DNA of 61,362 nucleotides from Minisyncoccota bacterium (GTDB taxonomy: Bacteria > Patescibacteriota > Minisyncoccia > Phycocordibacterales > Zambryskibacteraceae). Positions 3,694 through 61,362 of the stretch are shown here, piece after piece. Positions within the stretch are counted from its first letter, which is position 1; every line of letters starts with the position of its first letter. Below the pieces are notes generated by a model, which was not told where the DNA came from, did not search any database, and saw only the letters and a list, made by a program, of their open reading frames with translations. Location: assembly GCA_020059045.1 (NCBI GenBank), contig JAGVCW010000018.1:91320-152681 (forward strand). Reading direction: 5' to 3'. A program made the translations under genes and the position numbers.

Positions 3694-6600
3694 TTAACCA
3701 AGAACAAAGTTAATAATCCTCTCTTTTACATAGACTGTCTTTATAATGGTCTTGTCCTTAAGCCACTTATCCACTTCCTCCATGGCCTTGGCTCTTTCTA
3801 CTACAACACTCTCTTCTGCCCCCTTTTTAATCACAAGTGTCGCTCTAGTCTTACCATTCACTTGGACAGCAATCGTAGAGGTCTCTTCTAAAATTAGAGT
3901 TTCATCAAACTCTGGCCAACTTTCGGTGTGAATTGAGTTATTGTTTCCTAGGTCATGCCAAATCTCTTCCGTAACAAAGGGAGCAAAGGGTGCAAGAATT
4001 TTTAGAAAAAGTTCCAATTGTTCCTTCGACACAGATTCGCTTTTCTCAAGTTCATTTGCACAAACCATAAGCGAAGAAACTGCTGTGTTAAATCTCATTT
4101 CCTCAACATCTTCGGATACCTTCTTTATAGTTTTATGTATTGTCGAATCAATCTTGTTTGCTTTAGGTTGTTGGCTGTTGGTTACCCTGTCTGCAAGTTT
4201 CCAGATTCTTTCTAAGAATCTTCTTGGGCCAATTATTCCATCGCTTGACCACATTGCCATCTGATCAAAGGGGCCGACAAACATCTCGTACAGTCTCAAA
4301 GTATCTGCACCATATGTTTTGACAATGTCATCAGGGTTAACTACATTTCCTCTCGATTTGCTCATTTTCTCACCACCTTCCGCAAGAACTATCCCGTGAG
4401 AAGTCCTCTTTTTGTACGGTTCAGATGTTGGAACAATCTTTAAATCATACAAAAATTTATACCAGAAACGTGAATAGAGTAGGTGTAAGGTTGTGTGCTC
4501 CATACCTCCGTTGTACCAATCTACGGGTAACCAATGTTTAAACTTGCTTTGTACATCATCACTAAAAATTTCTTTTGAAACGAGCTCTTTTGACTTTAGA
4601 TTGTCCATAATGCAGAAAGCAAGAAAGTACCATGAGGATCCTGCCCAGTTTGGCATTGTGTCTGTCTCACGCGTTGCAGAACCCTTACAAATTGGGCATT
4701 TAACATCCACCCAAGATCGAATATTAGCAAGCGGCGACTCCCCAGTATCAGTTGGTTCGTACTTCTCTACTTTAGGTAGTTTAACTGGCAGGTCCTTTTC
4801 AGATACTGGGACTATTAAATGCTCTTGACCACTAATTAGTACATAATCCTGACCTTCCTTTAGTTCCTTATTATTTATTCCTAGTTCCTCCCAGCAAGTA
4901 CGACAATACATGACTGGTATTGGCTCTCCCCAGTACCTTTGGCGTGAGAATATCCAGTCACGAAGCTTGAATCGAGTTACGCCTTTACCCCCAATAAACT
5001 GAACAATTTCATTTTTTGTTTCTTGAGAGCTTTGACCAGTAAATTTGTCTGAATTAATCATAATGCCCTCACCGGTCCAGAGAGTGCTTGGATTCATTAG
5101 AGTTTCCCAAGAATATCTATGCGAAGCTGGAAGGTGAAACTTCTCCATCTCACTCTTCGTGAGCCAGACAATCTCATGAATATCATTTTCTCCATCTGCT
5201 AAACTTTCTCTTTTGTCATCCTGCAGTTCAAAGTAAAGAACATAAAAATGTGCAAATCTATTTACATCCTTTGGAACATGGAAAAACTTTGCATGAGTTC
5301 GAGGTAAAGCTTTCACAAACTTTAAGTTCTGATATCCTGTCTCTTCTCGAATTTCAGCCAAAGCCGCTTCTTCAGGAGTTTGATTATTTTCTACTCCTCC
5401 AGTTATAAGAGTCTCCCAATTTACTTTTTTCCATTTAAGCCCAATGTACTTGTCATCTCGCCAATGTTTAACTATGGCTGTAATAGCAACTCTCTCTACC
5501 CACTCTTTATCACTTCTCACCTTTCCAGGTTCTGTCTCTTGAATAAATATAGGTTCGATTACTTGTCTAATAGGTAAATTGTGGCTCTTGGCAAAATCAA
5601 AATCTCTCTCATCGTGTGCCGGAACCGCCATGATAGCTCCCGTTCCATAGTGAGGTAAAACGTAATCAGCTACCCAGATAGGAATCTCTTCCGATGTGGC
5701 AGGATTAATCGCGACCACTCCACGAAGCAGAATGCCTGTCTTTTCACCACCTAGGGCTGTTCTATCCATCTCAGAACGCTTCGTTGCAGTCTTTATGTAG
5801 GCTTTAACCTCCTCCTTGTTGTCTAATACATCGTGATCGTTATCAGTTGCAAGTGTTACCCATATGTGTTCGGGAGCAAGCACAACAAATGTGGCACCGT
5901 AAATAGTGTCAGGTCGTGTTGTAAAAACTTTTATAGCCGCTTTCTCACCTTGAGGGCCTCTATTCTCGTTTAACTTTGGTTTACTTTTGAAATCTAAAAG
6001 AAATTCAATTTCAGCACCCTCTGACCGGCCAATCCAATTTTTTTGCTGACTCTTCACTCTGTCTGGATAATCTGCGGTGTCTAAATCCTTATCGAGTCTT
6101 TCTGCATACTTTGTAATAGCAAGCATCCACTGCTCCTTATCTCTTTTTTCAACTGGCGTTCCACAGCGTTCACACTTACCATCAACAACTTCCTCGTTTG
6201 CAAGCCCAATTTTATCTTTCGGACACCAATTAATCGGCATTCGAGCTTTGTAAGCAAGACCATGTTTCAAAAGTTGCAAGAAAATCCATTGCGTCCATTT
6301 ATAATATTTTGGGTCAGATGTACTAACCTCCTTTGACCAATCGAATGAAAGTCCGAGTGAGTTAATTTGCTTTTTGTAGTTTGCAATATTTTTCTTTGTT
6401 GTGATCGAAGGGTGTACTCCAGTTTTAATTGCAAAGCTTTCTGCCGGAAGACCGAAGGCGTCCCAGCCCATTGGGTACATTACGTTATTACCCTCCATCC
6501 TTCTTTTCCGAGATAAAATATCAAACGCCGTGTAGCTCCTCACATGTCCCACGTGCAGACCATCACCAGATGGGTAAGGAAATTCCACAAGTTGATACCA

Positions 6601-9073: not shown

Positions 9074-9388
9074 CTAACTGGATACAGACTTTGTCTCTCT
9101 CATAACGTTAACTGCGGTGACAATCAAATTCGCAGTTGAATAATCACTTGTTTCAACAACCAAGTCCCAGAAACGATCAAGAACTGCATAATTTCTTGCG
9201 CCCATGCCACGCTCTTCAACGCCAATTTTCCACGGCCCGGGTAGTGGTTCAAAGAAGCCCTTGCGCGTCAGGGATGCTATCTTCTCGTCGTCTGTTCCAC
9301 TCTCAAGTGCCAGTGCATCCAAGATACTTGGGCGCTTAATATCTCGATAAGATTTCGGAGCCTTCTTCCTAACTGTACTCTTTTTCAA
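9074..9388 (-). CDS. hypothetical protein (104 aa, TTG start)
   Basis: An AAAGGAG RBS lies 4 nt before the TTG. A TTGACA-17-TACAAT promoter is upstream. A terminator hairpin plus T7 lies at about 9040-9070. Confidence 0.6.
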   Translation of the reverse strand: MKKSTVRKKAPKSYRDIKRPSILDALALESGTDDEKIASLTRKGFFEPLPGPWKIGVEERGMGARNYAVLDRFWDLVVETSDYSTANLIVTAVNVMRETKSVSS

Positions 9389-9456
9389 GGTGCTCCTTTG
9401 TTTGATGTCTGTAATTATTGTAGATCAACTTTCCATTTGTGTCAATGATTCGTAAT

Positions 9457-9501
9457 GGTTCAATAGCTTGGAATCACTTAGGTGGTTTAAGCTATTGAAC
9501 C
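9457..9501. repeat. 13-bp perfect inverted repeat (GGTTCAATAGCTT / AAGCTATTGAACC, 19-nt loop)
   Basis: Read directly. It lies between the divergent promoters of 9074-9388(-) and 9571-9744(+). Confidence 0.8.
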
Positions 9502-9513
9502 TATACGGCTATA

Positions 9514-9542
9514 TTGACGTTTTTACATAATTATATTATAGT
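9514..9542 (+). promoter_or_regulatory. sigma-70-type promoter (TTGACG-17-TATAGT)
   Basis: Hexamers at 9514-9519 and 9537-9542, upstream of the ATG at 9571. Confidence 0.5.
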
Positions 9543-9570
9543 CGTCGTAACATCAAAAGAGAGGTGCTTT

Positions 9571-9744
9571 ATGCTCGTTCAAATCAAAATCTTTCAAAAA
9601 TCTGATGCCGTCAAGTTGCAAGAAAGAGTAAACAAATGGTTGAAGAATTCCTCTAATTCTGGATCATTTATGGTTCGTCAATTAGTTCAAACTCAATCAT
9701 TCGGACGTTTAACTATCACTATTCTCTACTCGCAACAACCTTAG
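9571..9744 (+). CDS. small protein (57 aa), possibly Cse60-like
   Basis: The internal ATG is preceded by AGAGAGG. MLVQIKIFQKSDAVKLQERVNKWL...TITILY loosely recalls the Cse60 family pattern. The ORF-track start at 9514 would lie inside the promoter. Confidence 0.5.
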   Translation: MLVQIKIFQKSDAVKLQERVNKWLKNSSNSGSFMVRQLVQTQSFGRLTITILYSQQP

Positions 9745-9899
9745 CACACACCGTAACTGAAACATGTCACGGTTTTTTATATTCTAAACTCTACGACATC
9801 TCCCAATTTTGCCCATGGTACTACATGGCCGCAAAACTGAGGATCCCGAGCAGTACCAGTCGAGGAATAACAATCATCCTTTTATGATTTAAAACATTG

Positions 9900-10913
9900 C
9901 TATATTTTAAATTCAATCACATCCCCATCCTGTACAACATATTCCTTCCCTTCAGTTCTTACCCAACCCCTTTCACGAGCGGCGGCATACGATCCTGCTT
10001 CTAGAAGTTTGTTCCACTCTATAACTTCAGCACGTATAAACTTTTCTCGAAAGTCTGTGTGAATTGCCATACCGGCGACAGGTGCCGTAGAATTTCTAGG
10101 TATTGTCCATCCACGCGTTTCATCCTCACCAGTTGTAAAGTATGTAATGAGATCAAGGGTCTCATAACCTTTTTTTATTAGTTCATCAAGACCAGTACCA
10201 AATACTGAATCTATCTCAAGGTACGGTCCGGGAATTTTAGAATAATCAATATTTACTTTCTCGCTTGCCGCTGAAGAGTTGAGAATATAAAGCACCGGCT
10301 TCATTGTAAGAAGGCTTAGGCCCTTTACCGAGTGAATCTCACTTTGATCAAGAAGAGCACTTCGACACTGCTCAGTGTAAACAAATTTCTCAGCTTCTAG
10401 GGCCGACTTTATTTTTTCAAGTGCAGAGTGTTCCACAACTGCAGCCTTGTCTCCAGTCTTAATGTCGCGAGCAACACTGTCCATTCTTTTATTTACCACT
10501 TGCAGATCTGCAAGAATGAGTTCTAGGTTGATAACCACAATATCTCCCAATGGATCAACTTTGTTATGTACATGAATTATATCTGGGTCCTCAAATACTC
10601 GAACCACTTCTGCTATGGCATCAACTTCGCGAATATTTGTAAGGAATGCATTCCCAAGTCCCTCTCCAGCTGAAGCACCTTTCACAAGCCCAGCAATGTC
10701 TACAAATTCCACAACTGCTGGAAGAGTTTTTGCCGACTTACTGAACTCGGAAAGTCGAGTAAGTCTAGGGTCTGGTACAGGTACAACACCGACTGATGGA
10801 TCAATAGTACAAAAGGGATAATTCTCAGCTGGCACACTCTTCTTTGTAAGCGCGTTAAACAGCGTCGATTTGCCGACATTCGGTAACCCTACGATCCCAA
10901 TTGAGAGTTTCAT
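9900..10913 (-). CDS. ychF: ribosome-binding ATPase YchF
   Basis: MKLSIGIVGLPNVGKSTLFNALT P-loop, with TGS-like and C-terminal YchF blocks. The start was moved to the ATG at 10913 (the track ORF extends upstream). Confidence 0.93.
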   Translation of the reverse strand: MKLSIGIVGLPNVGKSTLFNALTKKSVPAENYPFCTIDPSVGVVPVPDPRLTRLSEFSKSAKTLPAVVEFVDIAGLVKGASAGEGLGNAFLTNIREVDAIAEVVRVFEDPDIIHVHNKVDPLGDIVVINLELILADLQVVNKRMDSVARDIKTGDKAAVVEHSALEKIKSALEAEKFVYTEQCRSALLDQSEIHSVKGLSLLTMKPVLYILNSSAASEKVNIDYSKIPGPYLEIDSVFGTGLDELIKKGYETLDLITYFTTGEDETRGWTIPRNSTAPVAGMAIHTDFREKFIRAEVIEWNKLLEAGSYAAARERGWVRTEGKEYVVQDGDVIEFKI

Positions 10914-10947
10914 AATACTTGCGGTGTGATTGAGCTTAATATTACCA

Positions 10948-11196: not shown

Positions 11197-11310
11197 ATGC
11201 GGAAAATGATTAAACTAGTAGGTGCGGCCATTATGGGGGTAGTGTTCCTCATTGGCTGGACCTTACTTTGTACAGGGCAAGCAATTTTTGGGAAACCACA
11301 TCGTACCTGA
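11197..11310 (+). CDS. small membrane peptide (37 aa)
   Basis: CAGGAGAG RBS. The product is MRKMIKLVGAAIMGVVFLIGWTLLCTGQAIFGKPHRT. The terminator overlaps its stop. Confidence 0.45.
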   Translation: MRKMIKLVGAAIMGVVFLIGWTLLCTGQAIFGKPHRT

Positions 11311-11322
11311 TGTGGTTTTTTT
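11294..11322. terminator. bidirectional rho-independent terminator
   Basis: Hairpin AACCACATC / GATGTGGTT with a T-run after it. It sits between the convergent small ORF and the oxidoreductase 3' fragment. Confidence 0.7.
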
Positions 11323-11455
11323 ACTTGCCCTTACCACCAAGCTTATAGACCTTGCATTTAATACGTTCCCTTCTCCACATTCCAAAATGTTTCAAGTATC
11401 CAAATTTGTAAAGTCGAATTGGCGAAAACCCGGCAAACCAGAGTATCCACATCAT
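11321..11455 (-). pseudogene. displaced 3'-end fragment (44 codons) of flavodoxin-like NAD(P)H oxidoreductase gene
   Basis: Translates to MMWILWFAGFSPIRLYKFGYLKHFGMWRRERIKCKVYKLGGKGK*. The intact gene at 17063-17644 ends ...ILWFAGFSPIRLYKFGYLKHFGIWRRERIKKKVFKLGKKAK*. Confidence 0.8.
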
Positions 11456-11480
11456 AAAAAAAGCAGAGACTTATCTCTGC
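11456..11480 (-). terminator. rho-independent terminator of the 447-aa island gene
   Basis: Minus-strand hairpin GCAGAGA-TAAG-TCTCTGC followed by T7. Confidence 0.7.
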
Positions 11481-11501: not shown

Positions 11502-12845
11502 TTAGCCTTTAGGTAGCTGATCAATGTAGATATGTGCCTTATCTCCAAAAACTTCCTTGATTCTGGCGATGAATTTTGGACGGCGTGATCGAGTTGTATG
11601 AGCCAAACTCGATCGTAATGCCCGAGCCAGGTTGGTATCATAATAGCCGAAATCCTCTTTGACTATCTGCTTCCACTCTGCAGGCCATTTACCATTGTTC
11701 TGGCTTTTGCGCCTCAGTATCTTTACAAGCCATTCAACTTGCTCTTCGTCTGAGAAATTCTGCCACTTGCGCCTTGTTGAGCGTGACCCACCATTTGGTA
11801 AGGCCTTATCTGCAAACTGTGGCACAGAAACTTGAGGACTTGCTACTCCTATTGCACGAAAGATATCCTGATACCGACTTTGGATATCAACCAGCGCGTT
11901 GTACTCATTTTCAGCCTCACCACCAACCAGCCGTACAAGAGCTTCGAGCTTGGAGCCTGTCTGTTTTTCATCTTTCATAACTTCTCCTCTAGGTTTGGCG
12001 GCCTTAACCGCGTAAGTGAATTTGGAGGACTTTCTTACTGCAACAAACTTTGTATCCTTATCAAAAAAAAGTGGACTCTCAAGCCAGACTTTCACTAGAG
12101 AGTTGGGCACCTTCTTAGGATGGGGTTCGAAGTGGAAAAAGTATGTTCGCATTCTGACGGGATATCCGGAATATCTACTGACATACACATAACGTTCAAT
12201 GGACGTACACGTCCAATGCTTCCCAATAATTTCTGACATATCAACCAGAACACCAAACTCGCGCTTTGCACCCTTTTCTGGGTCAAAGTTCTTGATACGA
12301 GGTAAGCGCCGCTTTTCTCCCTTAGGAATTCTCTTCTGCCAAGAGACAATATGCTCAAAAACTTTTTGCGAGTGTTTACCAAAAAGTTTTATACCCCGTT
12401 CCACATATTCTGGCCAATTCTCAAGAATTGCATTCCTTCTCGAATCAGAAAGAGTTATAGCAAGTGACCGTCCCTTACTTGCATATACAAGAGGCAGAAC
12501 GGGTGAGAAGTCTTTTATTACTTGGTCAGATAGCGTTCCACATAAATCAAGATGGAAACCATCAATTGCGCCTTGATCACCGTGTCCTTCAAGAATCTTA
12601 TGAAATGTTCCTAAACGGTTATGGCTTCTGTACTTTCCGTTAGAGCCGTTGGAAATAAGTTCTTTACGCCTACTACGGTTAAGCTCAATCTGCCACCCGT
12701 GATTACCGGGAATCCCCACTTCAGCCCATACTCGAGCTTCTATGCCTTGACCTCCAAGAGTTGCAAGTTGTGCTTGGGGTAAAGGAGTGTAGTGTGAGAG
12801 AAACTCGAGAAATCTATGAGCAATTCGCTCTTTCAGAGTTTTCAT
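11502..12845 (-). CDS. island protein A (447 aa), weak Rossmann/methyltransferase-like N-terminal motifs, basic C-terminus
   Basis: CTAAGGAG RBS. The motifs LATLGGQGIE, WQIELN and IDGFHLDLCGT loosely resemble MTase motifs I, II and the D-L-D-x-x-G of Trm1-type enzymes. No confident family assignment. Confidence 0.75.
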   Translation of the reverse strand: MKTLKERIAHRFLEFLSHYTPLPQAQLATLGGQGIEARVWAEVGIPGNHGWQIELNRSRRKELISNGSNGKYRSHNRLGTFHKILEGHGDQGAIDGFHLDLCGTLSDQVIKDFSPVLPLVYASKGRSLAITLSDSRRNAILENWPEYVERGIKLFGKHSQKVFEHIVSWQKRIPKGEKRRLPRIKNFDPEKGAKREFGVLVDMSEIIGKHWTCTSIERYVYVSRYSGYPVRMRTYFFHFEPHPKKVPNSLVKVWLESPLFFDKDTKFVAVRKSSKFTYAVKAAKPRGEVMKDEKQTGSKLEALVRLVGGEAENEYNALVDIQSRYQDIFRAIGVASPQVSVPQFADKALPNGGSRSTRRKWQNFSDEEQVEWLVKILRRKSQNNGKWPAEWKQIVKEDFGYYDTNLARALRSSLAHTTRSRRPKFIARIKEVFGDKAHIYIDQLPKG

Positions 12846-12887
12846 TGCAGCTCCTTAGGAAATTAATTCAAAAAACTATCTTTGCAG

Positions 12888-12944
12888 ATTGTACTATGAA
12901 CTGGCTAGATGTCAACTTGACATTAATATTACCTGTAGTATGCT
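12888..12944. promoter_or_regulatory. back-to-back divergent promoters sharing the palindrome ATGTCAACTTGACAT
   Basis: Minus strand: TTGACA (12910-12915) with a 16-nt spacer to TACAAT (12888-12893). Plus strand: TTGACA (12917-12922) with a 16-nt spacer to TATGCT. The 15-nt palindrome is at 12909-12923. Confidence 0.5.
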
Positions 12945-12985
12945 AAAAAAAGATCAAGCATCATTTCTTTTTTCCTCAATCCTCA

Positions 12986-13624
12986 ATGTCTACTGACTCC
13001 TCGAAACACCAAAGATCGGTGGAGCTTGAACTTCGTAATGGCGAGAAAACCATAAGGGCCGCTAAGTATGCCGAAGAACAACTTATTGATGTCTTGAGTG
13101 ATTCAAGAACTCTCAGCCCAACTGGTATGACAATTGTTCAGCAAATTCTGCACTTAGTCCAAAGTATTGGTTTCGGGCAAGACAACGTCACAGTGTGGGA
13201 AAAGTTTTATGCAGTTATCGAACATGTTACCACTGTCACACCACATGCCAAGCCGAACAAACCAAGCTCTAATGACGAGATCACTCCTATTGAAGTTGAA
13301 ATTGCAAGGCGTGCAAAGATACGCTCCCAAATTGTTTCAATTCAGGAACAACTTGAGAATGAACGTGACCAGAAGCAAAGGGACTTGGAAACTGTTGCAG
13401 AACTTTTGAAACGAGGACTTGATGAGGAAGCTCAAACAAAAAGAAGATCAGTAATTGAAACAGAACTACTGCCTCTGGATGAGACGATTAAGCAAATTAT
13501 CGTAGCCGTGGCAGATAACGATCGTAAAGTTGCAGCTCTCACGGCTTACAGATCAGCAGTTCTACTTGTAAAACATGGGCCACCTGAAGGTGTGATCGGT
13601 GGAGAGTTCAAACTTCCTGTTTGA
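12986..13624 (+). CDS. island protein B (212 aa), predicted coiled-coil
   Basis: The ORF is convergent with the GHKL gene. Its C-terminal half is heptad-rich and charged. No obvious SD, so the start is uncertain. Confidence 0.6.
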   Translation: MSTDSSKHQRSVELELRNGEKTIRAAKYAEEQLIDVLSDSRTLSPTGMTIVQQILHLVQSIGFGQDNVTVWEKFYAVIEHVTTVTPHAKPNKPSSNDEITPIEVEIARRAKIRSQIVSIQEQLENERDQKQRDLETVAELLKRGLDEEAQTKRRSVIETELLPLDETIKQIIVAVADNDRKVAALTAYRSAVLLVKHGPPEGVIGGEFKLPV

Positions 13625-13636
13625 GTGAAGGAATAT

Positions 13637-13669
13637 AAAAACCCAAGCTTCTAGCTTGGGGATTTTTTT
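13637..13669. terminator. bidirectional rho-independent terminator
   Basis: Hairpin CCCAAGCT-TCT-AGCTTGGG flanked by an A-run and a T-run, between convergent genes. Confidence 0.75.
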
Positions 13670-13676
13670 GTTCACT

Positions 13677-15191
13677 TTATTTTTTCATTAGTTCCGCTCG
13701 GACCTCATTTGCAAAAAGCGTGGCTTGGTAGGAATCACCGGGAAACTTTCCCTGGCCAATTGCAAATAGGATCTGTACCAAACAATGCTCGCGCCTAGCT
13801 TCCTTTGTGCTAGGTAAGGCCTTGTATCCTCCGCGAACATTTACAATTACCTGATTTGGGTTGTTTGCTGAAACTTGAGCAAAAACAAATGGGTCAATTG
13901 ACTGCCCCCGATAAAGAACATAAGTCTCATCTCGAACCTTTATCGAGACATAGCGCTGATATGTTGCTGGCTTCCTATGACCTTTTGGATCAGCCTTGGA
14001 GCCTTCTCCTTGCTTTTGTTTTACACCTGGCTTATTGCTATCTGCAAAACCAGGAGCGACAATTTCCTCAGGTTCACCAAAAGTGGTATTCACCATCTCA
14101 ACCACTTCATCAAGAGTAGCTGCAGCATCTCCCGAGATTGCGTCTCGCTCAATTAGCTGTTTTGCTCCTTGAACTACTGACCCGATCAGAAACATCATAA
14201 GCTTGTCCCACTCCCTGTTTCCCTTCTTCATAAAGTCTTTCGCAAGGGTGTTGCGCGCAGTGTTCTGATGTCGCAAAAGTCCTGGAGCAAAGATATCGCC
14301 CTTGAGATCTGGGAACCACAGAGGATCGGGAAGCAGGCGTCCAAGCACTCTGCAGCTTGCGACACGCAGTCCAGTCCCTTCATCGCAGAGCCAAACTCCT
14401 CCACTATCTGCATCCCCTACTCCGAGTCTTGCTCTGTATAAGCCGTTCTCAGATGTCACATTCACCGCACTTTCAAGCGGCGGCGGCTCAAGCGTCTTAC
14501 TTCCAACAGTAAGTGGAAACATTTTATCTCGTTCACGCGGAAGCAGCCACTTAATTGCCTCACAAATATCATCGCAGGATGAGAAAACTGGTGTTGGAAT
14601 AACAATAGCGGTAAATGGGCCCTTAATTTTTTTCAGGTGCCCCATCTCCGTTGAATCAGATGGAATGAACCTGTCTGTTCTAAAGCCACCTTCAAGCTCA
14701 TATTTCTCAGGGATCATTGAGACAAATCGGGCGTCACCTGTAACAGAAGTTCTCGAAAGCAGGTAATAGCCGTGCTTGATTCTTTTAGTTGCAGGATTTT
14801 TGTCACTTACACAATTGGAATTAAGAGCAAGAGCCGCAAGTCTCCCTATACCCTTTTGGGATGCCCCATTAGATTGCATCTTTGTCTGCTGATTCAAATC
14901 ATGTATCGAAGTACCCAGTCGTTTAAAATAACGATCAAGCATCGGATCTGTTAGCCCACAACCGTGATCAAGTACCACAAGGGTTGGAGCTTTCCCCCCA
15001 AGAGGATGATTCGGAACTAACGAAATCTCAATATTGGCAAGCTGCGGTTCCCATCTATTCTTTGCATCGGGCATACTTGCGACAAGACCGTTTCTAACTA
15101 GTTCCATTACACATTGACCAGGACTATCATACAGACCACTTCCCAGGTTTTCGATCATCATATAGGCAGTAACATCCATGCGCGTGTTCAT
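13677..15191 (-). CDS. GHKL-superfamily (MORC/HATPase_c_3-like) ATPase, 504 aa
   Basis: The Bergerat motifs appear in order: MELVRNGLVAS (N box), VLDHGCGL (G1) and GASQKGIGRLAALAL (G2). About 350 aa at the C-terminus are unassigned. Confidence 0.8.
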   Translation of the reverse strand: MNTRMDVTAYMMIENLGSGLYDSPGQCVMELVRNGLVASMPDAKNRWEPQLANIEISLVPNHPLGGKAPTLVVLDHGCGLTDPMLDRYFKRLGTSIHDLNQQTKMQSNGASQKGIGRLAALALNSNCVSDKNPATKRIKHGYYLLSRTSVTGDARFVSMIPEKYELEGGFRTDRFIPSDSTEMGHLKKIKGPFTAIVIPTPVFSSCDDICEAIKWLLPRERDKMFPLTVGSKTLEPPPLESAVNVTSENGLYRARLGVGDADSGGVWLCDEGTGLRVASCRVLGRLLPDPLWFPDLKGDIFAPGLLRHQNTARNTLAKDFMKKGNREWDKLMMFLIGSVVQGAKQLIERDAISGDAAATLDEVVEMVNTTFGEPEEIVAPGFADSNKPGVKQKQGEGSKADPKGHRKPATYQRYVSIKVRDETYVLYRGQSIDPFVFAQVSANNPNQVIVNVRGGYKALPSTKEARREHCLVQILFAIGQGKFPGDSYQATLFANEVRAELMKK

Positions 15192-15790
15192 ACAGACCTC
15201 GGGGAGGGAGTGTTGAGTGACGACATGTCCTTACTGGTCGCCGGCCGATTGATTGAATCACTTTTGTCCGAGAATCGAGCGTTGATTCCCATTCGCTTGC
15301 TAATACGACTCATGGCCGCACGCATCTGAATTCGATCACCATCTGTGGCATCCTTTTTCTCGATAGAGGCCACGTCAATAATCACGTATAGCGAGTTAAG
15401 CAATGTGATAACGTGACCAACCATCTTGCGATTGATCTCTGAGCTGTGAACATCACTGATCGGGAGTTTCTTGATTTTCACCGTAGGTGTTACAGATCTT
15501 TCTTCATCGGTGGAGTACACCGGTGTAGAAGGATCCTTTCTGAACGCCGCCATAGACTTTATGGCTTTCCTCACCTCATCTGCAGTCATTTTGGATGGAT
15601 TTACTAGCCATCTTAGAAGCTGCTGATAGTTTTTTTCTATCGGATCCCCCATATACCGTTTGGTATAAAGGAGTGGCCGGTTCTTACCAGATAAGGTTGA
15701 GACCATTTTTCTAAGTTCTTCTACAACCTGCGTGCGATCCCGTTTGTTTCGTAGTTCAGGAGTTCCACTCCTTAACGACTTTTTGGGCAT
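15188..15790 (-). CDS. island protein D (200 aa), helical/basic, unknown function
   Basis: GAGGAG RBS. The stop overlaps the GHKL start (ATGA at 15188-15191). Confidence 0.7.
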   Translation of the reverse strand: MPKKSLRSGTPELRNKRDRTQVVEELRKMVSTLSGKNRPLLYTKRYMGDPIEKNYQQLLRWLVNPSKMTADEVRKAIKSMAAFRKDPSTPVYSTDEERSVTPTVKIKKLPISDVHSSEINRKMVGHVITLLNSLYVIIDVASIEKKDATDGDRIQMRAAMSRISKRMGINARFSDKSDSINRPATSKDMSSLNTPSPRSV

Positions 15791-15907
15791 TTTGACTCCT
15801 CAATGATTAAACTTTGAAAGACCTAACTCTTTTTACATTAAATACTGTTGTATTAAATTTGTCAAGATACAAAAAACTACGCATCTAATAAATGCGTAGC
15901 CATTAAT

Positions 15908-16855
15908 CTAGCCCAATATTTTACTTAGCGCTTCAACAGTTGCTCTTGTTTCTGCCATTGAAGCAAGGATCTCAGTCCTCTCACCTTCCAGGGAGCTAAT
16001 ACTTGTCTCCTCTGACTGAATCCTGCTTCTTGCTTCTCCGATAGCATTATCGATTACTACAAGGCGAGCCTTACTGCGATCAGAAGCCTCCAGTTTATCC
16101 GTTAGCTCCTTCAGCCTTGTTACCACTTCACTTGTGCTAATAGTATTTTTGTGCACTTGACCATTAGAAGCAGGCGAAACAGGGCTCACCGCACCTACCA
16201 AACCCGATTTACTCCTAACAAGTTGTGCCCCTTGTGTTATCCATTGAGGGGACAAGCGAAACATTTCTTGACTGCCTGATAGAGGTATGAGTCTCTTGCC
16301 ATCGGCAATAGAGCTAAAGAAGTCCTCTGGGTCGTCCGTACCTAGTTCCCTCAATACTCGGAGACAATCAGCTCTAGAGACAATATTTGTTTCTGGTGAA
16401 AGATTCCATATCTCTTGCATGATCTGAGGCCACAGTGCCGGGGTCTTGGCCGACTTACTTGTCCCATTTCCACTGTGTGCATCCTCGGATCTAGCTGACT
16501 CAGTCTGAAGTTTGGCTTTCTCAAGCCTACTATGAAAATCAACCGTATCCATACCATGAGGGACACTCATAAGTAAAATATACCTCTCAGAGTTATCACC
16601 GAAATGAGCGCTAACCTCAATCATTCTTCGACTAAGAACCGGCTTGAACCTCAGGCCCTTGGTGTGAGTAGTTCCTTTTGCAGTATCGCTTAGTTTCAAC
16701 AGCACCGGACTTGCTACCTGCCCAGCATTAGCAAGAATTTGTCCCAACTCCTTTCTCAATTCAGTTGCGGAACCAATTCTTCTCTCAAGTTCAGGCGATC
16801 CATTAATTATGAACTTCAGTGCCGGGCCATTCGCGAGCTTCCGTGTGGCGCTCAT
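15908..16855 (-). CDS. island protein E (315 aa), unknown N-domain, possible wHTH, C-terminal coiled coil
   Basis: AAAAGGAG RBS. It is the first gene of the operon. The C-terminal 80 aa are heptad-like (LKELTDKLEASDRSKARLVVIDNAIGEARSRIQ...). Confidence 0.7.
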   Translation of the reverse strand: MSATRKLANGPALKFIINGSPELERRIGSATELRKELGQILANAGQVASPVLLKLSDTAKGTTHTKGLRFKPVLSRRMIEVSAHFGDNSERYILLMSVPHGMDTVDFHSRLEKAKLQTESARSEDAHSGNGTSKSAKTPALWPQIMQEIWNLSPETNIVSRADCLRVLRELGTDDPEDFFSSIADGKRLIPLSGSQEMFRLSPQWITQGAQLVRSKSGLVGAVSPVSPASNGQVHKNTISTSEVVTRLKELTDKLEASDRSKARLVVIDNAIGEARSRIQSEETSISSLEGERTEILASMAETRATVEALSKILG

Positions 16856-16899: not shown

Positions 16900-16927
16900 A
16901 CTATACTATATAAAAATAATTTGTCCA
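16900..16927 (-). promoter_or_regulatory. promoter of island operon (TGGACA-16-TATAGT)
   Basis: Hexamers on the minus strand at 16922-16927 and 16900-16905, about 45 nt upstream of the ATG at 16855. Confidence 0.5.
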
Positions 16928-17062
16928 GCGTCTTGCACATAAAAAATTTTGGGCATGGAGTTACTAAGAATTTGGTAGCATAAATATTACATGGACTAGT
17001 TCGTGCGAACTAGCCTATAGAACAGAATACTATTATATACATTAGAAAACAACTCTAAATTT

Positions 17063-17644
17063 CTACTTTGCTTTTTTTCCTAATTTGAAAACTTTTTTCT
17101 TTATTCTTTCACGTCGCCATATTCCAAAATGTTTCAGATACCCAAACTTGTATAAGCGGATTGGTGAAAATCCTGCAAACCAGAGTATCCCCCTACGCAT
17201 TTCGTTTGTTGTGTCGCCAAACACTAGGTGCAAAATAATTGGCATGGTGTCCGATGTGACAAACATCACTGCAGAGCGACCCTTGAGTAACCTCTGCCAA
17301 CTGTATCCTCCTTCCGGAAAGTGATAAGCAAATCCTGGCAGCCAAGCTCGGTCAAATATTCCTTTGAGCTTTGCCGGCATTGTAGAAAACCATGTTGGAT
17401 AAAAAACCACGAAGTGATCGCACCATTTCACATTTTCCTGAAATGCCACTAGGTCAGGTTCAAGATCTTGCTTAACCTTGTATCCCTTGTGCAATACTGG
17501 ATCAAAGTTCATTTCCTCTAGATTCATCCGTCTTACCTCATGACCATTCTCTGTTGCACCTTTTTCGTATTCACCCGCCAAAGTACCGTTAAAAGTATCT
17601 GTGTCTGGGTGCCCAAGTAATATAAAAATCTTCTTTTTTTGCAT
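17063..17644 (-). CDS. flavodoxin-like fold NAD(P)H-dependent oxidoreductase (Flavodoxin_2 / quinone reductase-type)
   Basis: KIFILLGHPDTDTFNG...WCDHFVVFYPTWFSTMPAKLKGIFDRAW is typical of this family. About 125 nt at its 3' end are duplicated at 11321-11455. Confidence 0.8.
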   Translation of the reverse strand: MQKKKIFILLGHPDTDTFNGTLAGEYEKGATENGHEVRRMNLEEMNFDPVLHKGYKVKQDLEPDLVAFQENVKWCDHFVVFYPTWFSTMPAKLKGIFDRAWLPGFAYHFPEGGYSWQRLLKGRSAVMFVTSDTMPIILHLVFGDTTNEMRRGILWFAGFSPIRLYKFGYLKHFGIWRRERIKKKVFKLGKKAK

Positions 17645-23057: not shown

Positions 23058-23330
23058 GACTCCCCCTTGTAGTAGTTGTGATTGCGCCTGTTCCTAGGAT
23101 TTTCTATCAGAAATCTGTAACTTTGTCAAGCTTGTGGCTAAAAAAATTCATGTGATGCCGTTGTGGTCAGGAGTAACTTTTTACCTATGTGTCTTTTGTG
23201 GTCACGAATATTTTGTTCGTCGCCACAAACAAAATTTCTCGACCCTGGCTCAGTATCGCTCGTACTCTTGCGATATACTTCCGCCTTCCACAAAAGCACA
23301 AAACCCCTATCGGGGTTCTTGTGTCTTTTG

Positions 23331-23403
23331 TGGACCCTACCGGATTCGAACCGGTGACCTCCTCATTGCAAATGAGGCGCTCTACCAACTAAGCTAAGGG
23401 CCC
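23331..23403 (-). tRNA. tRNA-Ala (anticodon TGC)
   Basis: Cloverleaf read by hand: acceptor GGGCCCT with G3:U70, anticodon arm CCTCA-TTTGCAA-TGAGG, T-loop GGTTCGAATCC. CCA is not encoded. A terminator AACCCC-GATA-GGGGTT follows. Confidence 0.93.
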
Positions 23404-61303: not shown

Positions 61304-61362
61304 CTCCGCGACCAGGGCTCGAACCTGGGACATCCTCCTTAACAGGGAGGCGCTCTACCGAC
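61304..61362 (-). tRNA. tRNA-Asn (anticodon GTT), 3' portion; 5' end beyond right edge
   Basis: Minus strand ...GTCGGTAGAGCGCCTCCCTGTTAAGGAGGATGTCCCAGGTTCGAGCCCTGGTCGCGGAG. The anticodon loop is CTGTTAA and the T-loop TTCGAGC. CCA is not encoded. Confidence 0.85.

Follow-up and report, generated by a model that had tools for sequence, protein, structure and literature searches.

How should a gene for a GHKL-type ATPase be understood when it lies among genes without family assignment in the genome of a member of Patescibacteria, and does the block to which it belongs serve in defence? The question is raised by a 61,362-nt stretch of DNA from a Minisyncoccota bacterium (Zambryskibacteraceae; assembly GCA_020059045.1, contig JAGVCW010000018.1, positions 91,320-152,681 of the forward strand), which was analyzed at full length and is called the window below. 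An earlier note on this DNA had described a three-gene operon, ending in a GHKL/MORC-like ATPase and sitting on an integrated island, as a candidate conflict or defence module. The present analysis demonstrates that the conserved unit is a cassette of five genes (A to E) that was inserted as one block, and that its invariant core is formed by the ATPase (C) together with a protein predicted to have a methyltransferase fold (E). A nucleic-acid-directed conflict function is tentatively proposed for this cassette, and is weighed below against several other functions.

Patescibacteria, also known as the Candidate Phyla Radiation (CPR), account for a large share of bacterial diversity and have genomes of ~1 Mb, in which, to our knowledge, few defence systems have been recognized. 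A horizontally exchanged cassette of ~5.4 kb is a substantial investment for genomes of that size. For four of the five proteins no family could be assigned, and the fifth is a predicted GHKL clamp that stands between Hsp90 and MORC. Coordinates are window positions throughout, except where they follow an L number (L001 etc.), which denotes a comparison locus taken from the neighbourhoods of homologues.

The conserved five-gene cassette

The conserved module (11502-16855) consists of genes A, B, C, D and E, of which only D lies on the opposite strand. Gene A (15908-16855, minus strand) encodes a 315-aa protein, in which a type-1 N-terminal domain and a middle region precede a C-terminal coiled coil; gene B (15188-15790, minus strand), which overlaps C, encodes a basic helical protein of 200 aa; and gene C (13677-15191, minus strand) encodes the GHKL ATPase of 504 aa. 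These are the three minus-strand open reading frames (ORFs) of the earlier note, and their coordinates were confirmed. The unit does not end with them, as had been thought, but continues two genes further, to gene D (12986-13624, plus strand), which encodes an acidic coiled-coil protein of 212 aa, and gene E (11502-12845, minus strand), which encodes a 447-aa protein predicted to have the fold of class-I S-adenosylmethionine (SAM)-dependent methyltransferases. No transmembrane segment was found in any of the five proteins.

In the neighbourhoods of C homologues spanning 33-62% identity, the layout was the same each time: genes resembling A and B precede C, and C is followed by an oppositely oriented gene and then by a gene of 437-490 aa on the strand of C. 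This gene order is repeated on independent contigs whose flanks differ, the cassette length is ~5.4-5.7 kb, and BLAST found a homologue at the corresponding position for each of the five proteins of the window. The linkage of the partners, which the earlier note had left to be checked, thus recurs in other genomes. The five proteins differ strongly in conservation. Across loci, identity to the window homologues is 33-62% for C and 30-49% for E, and D, B and A are far more diverged; compared with L001, for example, the values are 61% for C, 49% for E, 39% for D, 34% for B and 28% for A.

C and E were found together, without exception, in all of the approximately 20 independent genomes with sufficient flanking sequence. 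A pattern-limited scan of species representatives (one genome per GTDB species, 185,579 in total) yielded 12 further loci, and both genes were present in all 12. When the most distant E homologues were taken as the starting point, a neighbouring GHKL-type protein of ~505-660 aa was again encountered. In addition, the neighbour-joining trees of C and E, which carry no support values, have a deep split in common, which suggests that the two proteins co-evolve. C and E are therefore the invariant core pairing of the cassette, and A, B and D are rapidly diverging accessory proteins. In L015 (positions 9554-10946; labelled Doudnabacteria), E is apparently split into ORFs of 118 and 313 aa, which may reflect a frameshift, a pseudogene or an assembly error.

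Protein C, a GHKL ATPase of the clamp class

The assignment of the 504-aa protein to the GHKL ATPases, made in the earlier note from its Bergerat-fold motifs, is borne out by both profile and residue conservation. C scores 26.5 bits against Pfam HATPase_c_3 (cut-off 25) over residues 26-125; the same model matches 33 of 43 C-family members at E ≤ 1 (best 9.6e-9), and the divergent copy in L011 scores 33.3 bits. In the alignment of these 43 homologues, the residues of the Bergerat fold are essentially invariant: E30 and N34 of the N box MELVRNG (ExxxN) and D75 of the G1 box DxGxG are kept in 43/43 members, G77 and G79 of the G1 box in 42/43 and 41/43, and each of G109, Q112, K113, G114, G116 and R117 of the ATP lid (QKGxGR) in at least 41/43. 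Given that its ATP motifs are intact, C is predicted to be a competent ATPase.

The AlphaFold (AF2) model of C (predicted local distance difference test, pLDDT, 88; predicted template modelling score, pTM, 0.84) begins with a GHKL domain and an alpha/beta transducer or middle domain; a disordered linker (378-408) then leads to a small C-terminal alpha/beta domain (414-503), which is built from four strands and two helices. Conserved residues of the last domain are the invariant E468 and H469 (39/43), together with N451, R453 and Y456. A Foldseek search of the PDB with this model retrieved members of the Hsp90 family first (HtpG, GRP94, TRAP1 and Hsp90; E 1e-12 to 1e-10 over ~430-455 columns), which make up all of the top 24 matches at TM-scores of ~0.42-0.45, followed by MORC2 (9cdj; 2e-10, ~437 columns) and SMCHD1 (6mw7; 7e-10). 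The relationship to Hsp90 is much fainter in sequence. The profile of the C family matches the N-domains of TRAP1/Hsp90 weakly (E 0.006), and C matches the NCBIfam model 'HSP90 family protein' (PRK14083) with E 1.4e-4 and 20.4 bits against a cut-off of 455, whereas the Pfam model HSP90 (PF00183) matched none of the 43 members at E ≤ 1. The middle domain of C contains a conserved LPRE loop (P218 in 43/43 and R219 in 42/43 members), which may correspond to the catalytic-arginine loop of Hsp90, and R219 may accordingly supply an arginine that contacts the phosphate.

The label 'MORC-like' given in the earlier note survives at the level of the fold, but structures of the Hsp90 family are closer, and the signature of the MORC S5 domain, GhXhhpXXRhl (PMC2292703), is not found in the C family. 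The best corresponding stretch is G274-F/L-R-V-A-S-C-x-x-L-G, in which position 282, that of the signature arginine, is unconserved among the 43 members (K in 19, Q in 7, R in 4, A in 4, and others). A housekeeping GHKL enzyme was also considered. No Pfam or NCBIfam match to MutL, GyrB/ParE, the B subunit of topoisomerase VI or a sensor kinase was obtained, and the top 50 folds shown all belong to the Hsp90 family, MORC2 or SMCHD1; thus, C does not model as one of these enzymes, a check that the earlier note had proposed. Restriction-endonuclease (RE), TIR, DUF4263 and other nuclease domains were absent from the Pfam scan of the 43 C-family members, and extension of the family profile returned only the same 53 clusters. 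Taken together, the model places C in the GHKL-plus-transducer clamp class as a member of neither the Hsp90 nor the MORC family, and C is presumably a dimerizing, ATP-dependent clamp.

Protein E, an orphan with a predicted methyltransferase fold

The AF2 model of E (pLDDT 87) shows a methyltransferase fold at residues 1-270 and a helical C-terminal domain at ~299-441. All significant Foldseek matches in the PDB and BFVD are class-I SAM-dependent methyltransferases, although the matches are weak (best 1.5e-5, ~250-270 columns), and the nearest structures are sugar, lipid, catechol and rRNA methyltransferases. The order of secondary structures runs from beta1 to beta5, followed by a helical insert and a beta6-beta7 hairpin. 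In an alignment of 66 sequences, G31, G32, G34 and E36 of motif I (L-G31-G32-x-G34-x-E36, i.e., GGxGxE), E54 at the end of beta-2, and D95, H98, D100 and G103 of a motif-IV-like stretch (D95-x-F-H98-L-D100-L-C-G103) are all invariant. C102 of this stretch is replaced by Ser in the L008 orthologue and is therefore not an essential nucleophile. The catalytic motifs of DNA methyltransferases, DPPY ((D/N/S)PP(Y/F/W)) and PCQ, are absent from E, in which D100-L-C-G occupies the motif-IV position.

E and nine of its orthologues have no Pfam or NCBIfam match, and the window protein also found no PDB entry by phmmer or in two profile searches. An exhaustive hidden Markov model (HMM) search of 1.84 billion representatives returned a closed family of 218 representatives, 161 of them at E ≤ 1e-30, and no sequence connecting it to other families. 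Long homologues of E had no extra domains, and no Rosetta-stone fusions were found. The protein is strongly basic (isoelectric point, pI, 9.9). By its model, E is an orphan protein of the class-I methyltransferase fold with intact SAM-binding motifs, and its invariant residues, which fit a working SAM site, make it plausible as an enzyme. The statement of the earlier note that no nuclease, methyltransferase or helicase motif is evident is correct as regards nucleases and helicases, none of which was detectable, but its methyltransferase part is true of A, B and C only, as the neighbouring gene E encodes a methyltransferase fold.

The accessory proteins A, B and D

A is the least conserved slot of the cassette and is absent or unrecognizable in L007, L015 and L024. 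The window protein matches only coiled coils in the databases, and the C-terminal coiled coil that had been proposed for it was confirmed. Homologues of this type (type 1) occupy the same slot in L001, L004, L009 and L017, whereas a second type, with a non-homologous N-terminal domain and a C-terminal coiled coil in common, is found in L003, L008, L010, L014, L019, L022, L023 and L025. On the C tree, a neighbour-joining tree without support values, the two versions are intermingled, a sign that the A gene may have been swapped within cassettes.

B is helical and strongly basic (pI 10.2), in line with its previous description, and contains a conserved DGDR motif; its family shows a conserved RxFxRxxL...WLxG pattern. 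No match was found in Pfam, the PDB or PADLOC. Two candidate assignments were rejected: a DUF5343 match (E 0.024) occurs in the window protein only and is absent from 19 orthologues, indicating chance, and an Xre-type helix-turn-helix (HTH) received a probability of 0.3% in an hhalign comparison with classic HTH domains. Single weak matches to HTH_3 (0.12) and dnstrm_HI1420 (0.16) occur in other members of the family.

D is acidic and its PDB matches are only to coiled coils, while its position and orientation are kept in most loci. In a divergent clade D is much longer (356-566 aa), owing to an extra conserved C-terminal domain of ~150 aa with the pattern SLYE/D..L ... FGW ... YLxF+G ... F.RT...W and no Pfam match; these long proteins are encoded in L006 (6512-7738), L007 (9588-10982), L008 (6181-7248), L013 (6786-7883) and L024 (8566-10263). 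The larger A and D proteins of divergent loci, and the proteins encoded in the flanks there, contained no informative domain.

Insertion of the cassette

The island proposed in the earlier note is genuine, and the five genes were inserted as one block, because the 3' end of a target gene is duplicated around the cassette and relatives retain an empty junction. The right copy of this 131-nt direct repeat (17060-17190, minus strand) is the 3' end of an intact flavodoxin-like gene (17063-17644), and the left copy (11318-11448, minus strand) is a displaced and diverged duplicate of the final 41 codons of that gene (ILWFAGFSPIRLYKFGYLKHFGMWRRERIKCKVYKLGGKGK*); the copies are ~71% identical, and the five genes lie exactly between them. 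Empty sites are present in the metagenomic relatives L030 and L032, in which the flavodoxin-like protein is 80% and YchF 82-83% identical and the order is PGI, ROK, flavodoxin-like gene, YchF, with a gap of only ~90-130 bp between the last two. YchF directly follows the flavodoxin-like gene in eight more loci.

The left copy also forms a 44-aa ORF with an ATG start (11321-11455, minus strand; MMWILWFAGFSPIRLYKFGYLKHFGMWRRERIKCKVYKLGGKGK). The two copies share ~85% identity in amino acids yet only ~71% in DNA, which implies that one of them came from the gene of another lineage; both are ~65-74% identical to relatives, and neither can be assigned as native. No recombinase or integrase domain was detected by Pfam in A-E, and no flanking repeats bracket the cassette at eight other loci. 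The footprint could have been left by site-specific integration in trans, or by homology-facilitated illegitimate recombination of donor DNA. That the flavodoxin-like gene is a specific target was considered and rejected, as no other cassette locus lies near such a gene.

The junction between the flavodoxin-like gene and YchF is a variable site. Other inserts of 1-4.4 kb are present there in relatives of the lineage of the window, namely L028, L031, L038, L040, L043, L046, L056, L060 and L062, encoding pyruvate kinase, a thioredoxin-reductase-like protein, an ABC ATPase, a 469-aa oxidoreductase-like protein and an 835-aa protein without assignment. The view of this junction as a defence hotspot was discarded, since the other inserts carry metabolic genes. 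Between the gene remnant and YchF in the window lies a small ORF for a hydrophobic 37-aa product (11197-11310, plus strand; MRKMIKLVGAAIMGVVFLIGWTLLCTGQAIFGKPHRT); this stretch may also be foreign, considering that relatives with the empty site hold only ~90-130 bp there.

In L004/L005 and L009 the cassette occupies the same syntenic site, though their C is only ~45% identical to that of the window. The shared flanks comprise MgtC, PDDEXK_1, DNA_binding_1, UDG and peptidase genes upstream and alanyl-tRNA synthetase (AlaRS) downstream, and an ATP-cone/Mrr_cat gene is found near the cassette in L004. In L010 (Taylorbacteria), a tyrosine recombinase gene (Phage_integrase; 11819-12757) lies directly downstream of E and could be either a housekeeping XerC/D or a mobility gene; a faint match to a ParD-like antitoxin and an adjacent small gene are located upstream (4971-5437). 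L006 carries three consecutive direct repeats (9359-9673 and 11583-12010) of 71-97 nt that are 80-89% identical and spaced by ~2.2-2.3 kb; the 433-aa gene that follows E is flanked by these repeats, an arrangement resembling an intergenic segment that was duplicated or a small mobile unit.

Distribution

All named sources of the cassette belong to Patescibacteria, including Parcubacteria/Paceibacterota, Zambryskibacteria, Taylorbacteria, Adlerbacteria, Doudnabacteria, Uhrbacteria and some bins labelled Saccharibacteria. L024 (CAYOCJ010000001.1) is titled 'uncultured Gammaproteobacteria bacterium'; its AtpD fragment shares 87% identity with that of L051, which is related to the lineage of the window, and the label is probably the result of mis-binning. 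The cassette is rare and patchy, having been found in 12 of the 185,579 species representatives by the pattern-limited scan, and at 90% identity the C and E families comprise 53 and 71 clusters, respectively. A comparison with the phage families of PHROGs gave noise only.

Transcription layout

The earlier note had treated A, B and C as a single operon, which is contradicted by the spacer between A and B. In the window, the stop codon of A is followed by a terminator-like hairpin with a 12-pair stem and a T-run (15875-15901, minus strand) and then by a promoter-like site upstream of B-C (TTGACA, 17 nt, TTTAAT; 15837-15865, minus strand, with the TTGACA box at 15865-15860). When the A-B spacers of eight loci were folded, every one of them contained a GC-rich hairpin with a U-tract, followed by TTGACA and an AT-rich element resembling a -10 box. 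Because this succession of terminator and promoter is conserved, A is predicted to be its own transcription unit, and B-C a separately promoted, translationally coupled pair. The ATGA at 15188-15191, reported previously as the point of coupling, is indeed the overlap of the B stop and the C start, and the 4-nt overlap is repeated in many loci.

The promoter that had been placed at 16900-16927 (minus strand) upstream of A is present as a sequence, TGGACA-16-TATAGT, with 10/12 consensus matches; however, the region has 12 promoter-like sites against 10.1 expected from shuffled sequences, i.e., no enrichment, and this site alone is weak evidence. D and E diverge from a 140-bp region that contains promoter-like sites for both (12888-12944; TTGACA-16-TACAAT, 11/12, for E), with -35 boxes that form a perfect palindrome, TGTCAA-C-TTGACA (12910-12922); this palindrome could also serve as an operator. 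A hairpin search further identified a bidirectional terminator-like hairpin between the convergent C and D (13642-13660) and another terminator-like hairpin 3' of E (11463-11480). A layout of four transcripts is thus predicted for the whole cassette.

Comparison with known systems

Neither PADLOC v2 nor the literature searched contains a description of the five-gene set, and the earlier impression that it matches no named system agrees with the PADLOC scan, which gave no match. The closest precedents are found among the prokaryotic MORC and paraMORC genes, which have been linked to DNA methylases in operons that resemble restriction-modification systems (Iyer, Abhiman and Aravind 2008, PMC2292703); a GHKL clamp beside a methylase in a mobile cassette is a theme known from comparative genomics. 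Like these genes, C has an N-terminal GHKL domain, whose ATP motifs are intact, and then an S5-like transducer, the likeness being at the level of the fold only, and the cassette is likewise sporadic, laterally mobile, linked to a gene of methyltransferase type and equipped with a family-specific C-terminal domain. On the other hand, the superfamily II helicases and the RE-fold, HNH or Vsr nucleases that accompany paraMORC genes were absent from the cassette in the loci examined by Pfam. Its methyltransferase-fold protein E lies outside the known DNA methylase families, its other partners are two coiled-coil proteins and one basic orphan, and the family is restricted to Patescibacteria. The C-terminal features published for single families are ExxxH in paraMORC2, an RE nuclease in paraMORC3, TIR in paraMORC4 and HxH in paraMORC5; the E468/H469 pair of C fits none of these motifs, and the Pfam scan of the 43 members detected neither of the two domains.

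Hsp90 provides the best structural matches of C, covering the N-terminal and middle domains, together with the weak N-domain matches in sequence. In contrast to Hsp90, C fails the curated models, is ~120-150 aa shorter at 504 aa, ends in a different small C-terminal domain, and is a mobile, rare component of a five-gene cassette, whereas Hsp90 is encoded by a solitary housekeeping chaperone gene. C shares the GHKL ATPase and the clamp-like middle domain with VcSduA, a GHKL-clamp protein of the paraMORC3-type Shedu (type I-D) for which ATPase-dependent phage defence was shown experimentally (PMC12137116); VcSduA is, however, a single protein with a C-terminal DUF4263 PD-(D/E)xK nuclease, while C has no recognizable nuclease and four partner genes. 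With MORC2 and SMCHD1 the cassette has in common the GHKL-plus-transducer module at the fold level, coiled-coil partners or regions, and a connection to methylation, which here is one of gene linkage only; it lacks CW, hinge or chromatin-reader domains, and the sequence identity is 12-16%. Judged by their defining features, the cassette is none of MORC, a paraMORC operon, Hsp90 or Shedu type I-D.

A further comparison concerns BREX and DISARM, multi-gene cassettes that combine a methyltransferase, an ATPase and proteins of unclear role without an obvious nuclease effector. The same general composition is seen in the present cassette, although none of the BREX or DISARM component families was detected by PADLOC, the ATPase is of the GHKL type rather than AAA+/Lon or a helicase, and the methyltransferase fold is an orphan.

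Possible function

We tentatively read the cassette as a nucleic-acid-directed conflict system, acting in defence or exclusion, that couples methylation to an ATP clamp, and assign this reading a probability of about 0.4. It is suggested by the mobility and patchiness of the cassette, the contrast in rate between core and accessory genes, the swappable A, the basic B and E, and the precedents of MORC/paraMORC and VcSduA. The rate contrast and the swapping of domain types in A are typical of conflict systems, and the strongly basic character of B and E is a hint of nucleic acid. In such a system, E would deposit a methyl mark, most plausibly on DNA, and the clamp C, positioned by B, A and D, would use ATP to engage nucleic acid and neutralize it according to the mark, either by compaction or silencing, as in eukaryotic MORC/SMCHD1, or via a catalytic site that has so far escaped recognition. 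We infer the DNA substrate, the self/non-self logic, the defence role and the neutralization of the target. A more specific form of this proposal, in which an orphan methyltransferase marks DNA and an Hsp90/MORC-like clamp on coiled-coil scaffolds topologically entraps or compacts unmarked (or marked) invading DNA as an immune or silencing system free of any nuclease, is distinctly unlikely.

Several observations weigh against a conflict function. The nearest structures of C are protein chaperones of the Hsp90 family, not DNA clamps, and those of E are small-molecule and rRNA methyltransferases, not DNA methyltransferases, with DPPY and PCQ lacking. No nuclease, helicase, TIR, PLD or other effector domain was detected in the five proteins or their divergent orthologues, and PADLOC-DB v2.0 gave zero matches for all five proteins at E ≤ 1. 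The neighbourhoods consist of ordinary housekeeping genes rather than defence islands, the other inserts at the junction being metabolic. Relatives were absent from 2.9 million viral contigs, 50,697 phage records and 72,556 plasmids (IMG/VR, INPHARED and PLSDB), and the shared flanks of L004 and L009 point to stable vertical inheritance in some lineages. The earlier idea of a conflict or defence module therefore draws support from the mobility, the patchy distribution and the fast-evolving accessory genes, but not from any effector or defence-island context, and stays a matter of interpretation.

Among the other functions, it is possible, though unlikely, that the cassette encodes a machine for chaperoning and modification, in which C would act on clients in the manner of Hsp90, E would methylate a protein, an RNA or a small molecule, and A, B and D would be adaptors similar to co-chaperones; the cassette would then be an accessory trait of proteostasis or host interaction in episymbiotic CPR cells and not one of immunity. 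The ranking of the structural matches of C (the top 24) speaks for this, as do its sole sequence matches beyond Pfam (the TRAP1/Hsp90 N-domains and the NCBIfam 'HSP90 family protein' model), the conserved LPRE loop, the kinds of methyltransferase that E resembles and the absence of a nuclease from the cassette. Yet PF00183 recognizes none of the 43 members and PRK14083 yields 20 bits instead of 455, the DNA and chromatin clamps MORC2 and SMCHD1 match C almost equally well, and mobility, patchiness and fast-evolving partners would be unusual for proteostasis. B and E are highly basic. A host module for epigenetic control or chromosome organization has a similarly low probability. Here E would set DNA methylation, and C with its coiled-coil partners would read it, silencing or structuring regions for gene regulation instead of immunity, as a counterpart in prokaryotes of MORC/SMCHD1 silencing. 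The evidence from folds and motifs of C and E is the same as for the conflict function; the syntenic retention in L004 and L009 with C at ~45% identity to that of the window suggests long-term vertical retention, no effector is present, and the four promoted units and the palindromic divergent promoter suggest a regulated stoichiometry. Nevertheless, neither the close relatives of this genome nor the great majority of CPR species carry the cassette, which is hence dispensable, its accessory genes diverge fast, and DNA is a presumed substrate of E.

The repeats at the ends of the cassette raise the additional prospect of a selfish element, whose genes would serve maintenance, addiction or integration, one of the orphans being a recombinase or partition factor that has gone unrecognized. 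The repeats are att-like and duplicate the 3' end of the target, an empty site exists, and the cassette travels as one unit to unrelated contexts while no conventional integrase inside it explains the mobility. We regard this as quite improbable, considering that the flanking repeats were found in the window only and at none of eight other loci, that the GHKL and methyltransferase folds are not known recombinase folds, that copies are absent from plasmids, phages and viral contigs, and that one copy per genome and the syntenic retention in L004 and L009 speak against active transposition; the recombination of donor DNA mentioned above could also have created the repeat. The version put forward in the earlier note, a self-contained operon of A, B and C that acts as a GHKL defence system alone, appears least likely by far. 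The three genes are adjacent and co-oriented, and B overlaps C, but a conserved terminator and promoter stand between A and B-C, A is the least conserved slot with two types and three loci in which it is missing or unrecognizable, and the invariant partner of C is E, which lies outside the three genes.

If methylation were indeed coupled to a clamp without a nuclease, as in the specific form of the conflict system given above, the cassette would represent a new mode of action for prokaryotic immunity. It would also offer a simple bacterial model of MORC/SMCHD1-type ATPases that read epigenetic marks, and in the specific form would be a functional analogue of the silencing done by eukaryotic MORC/SMCHD1, and perhaps an evolutionary window onto it, restricted to the ultra-small Patescibacteria. 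If C instead acts as a mobile chaperone similar to Hsp90, together with an enzyme that methylates proteins or RNA, the cassette would be an accessory proteostasis module of a new type. In both cases, C and E define two new protein families, whose clear catalytic motifs can be mutated and tested.

Further observations

Two tRNA genes were noted in the window. One of them (61304-61362, minus strand; Rfam, 38.4 bits) is cut by the end of the window, and the sole complete one is tRNA-Ala(TGC) at 23330-23403.

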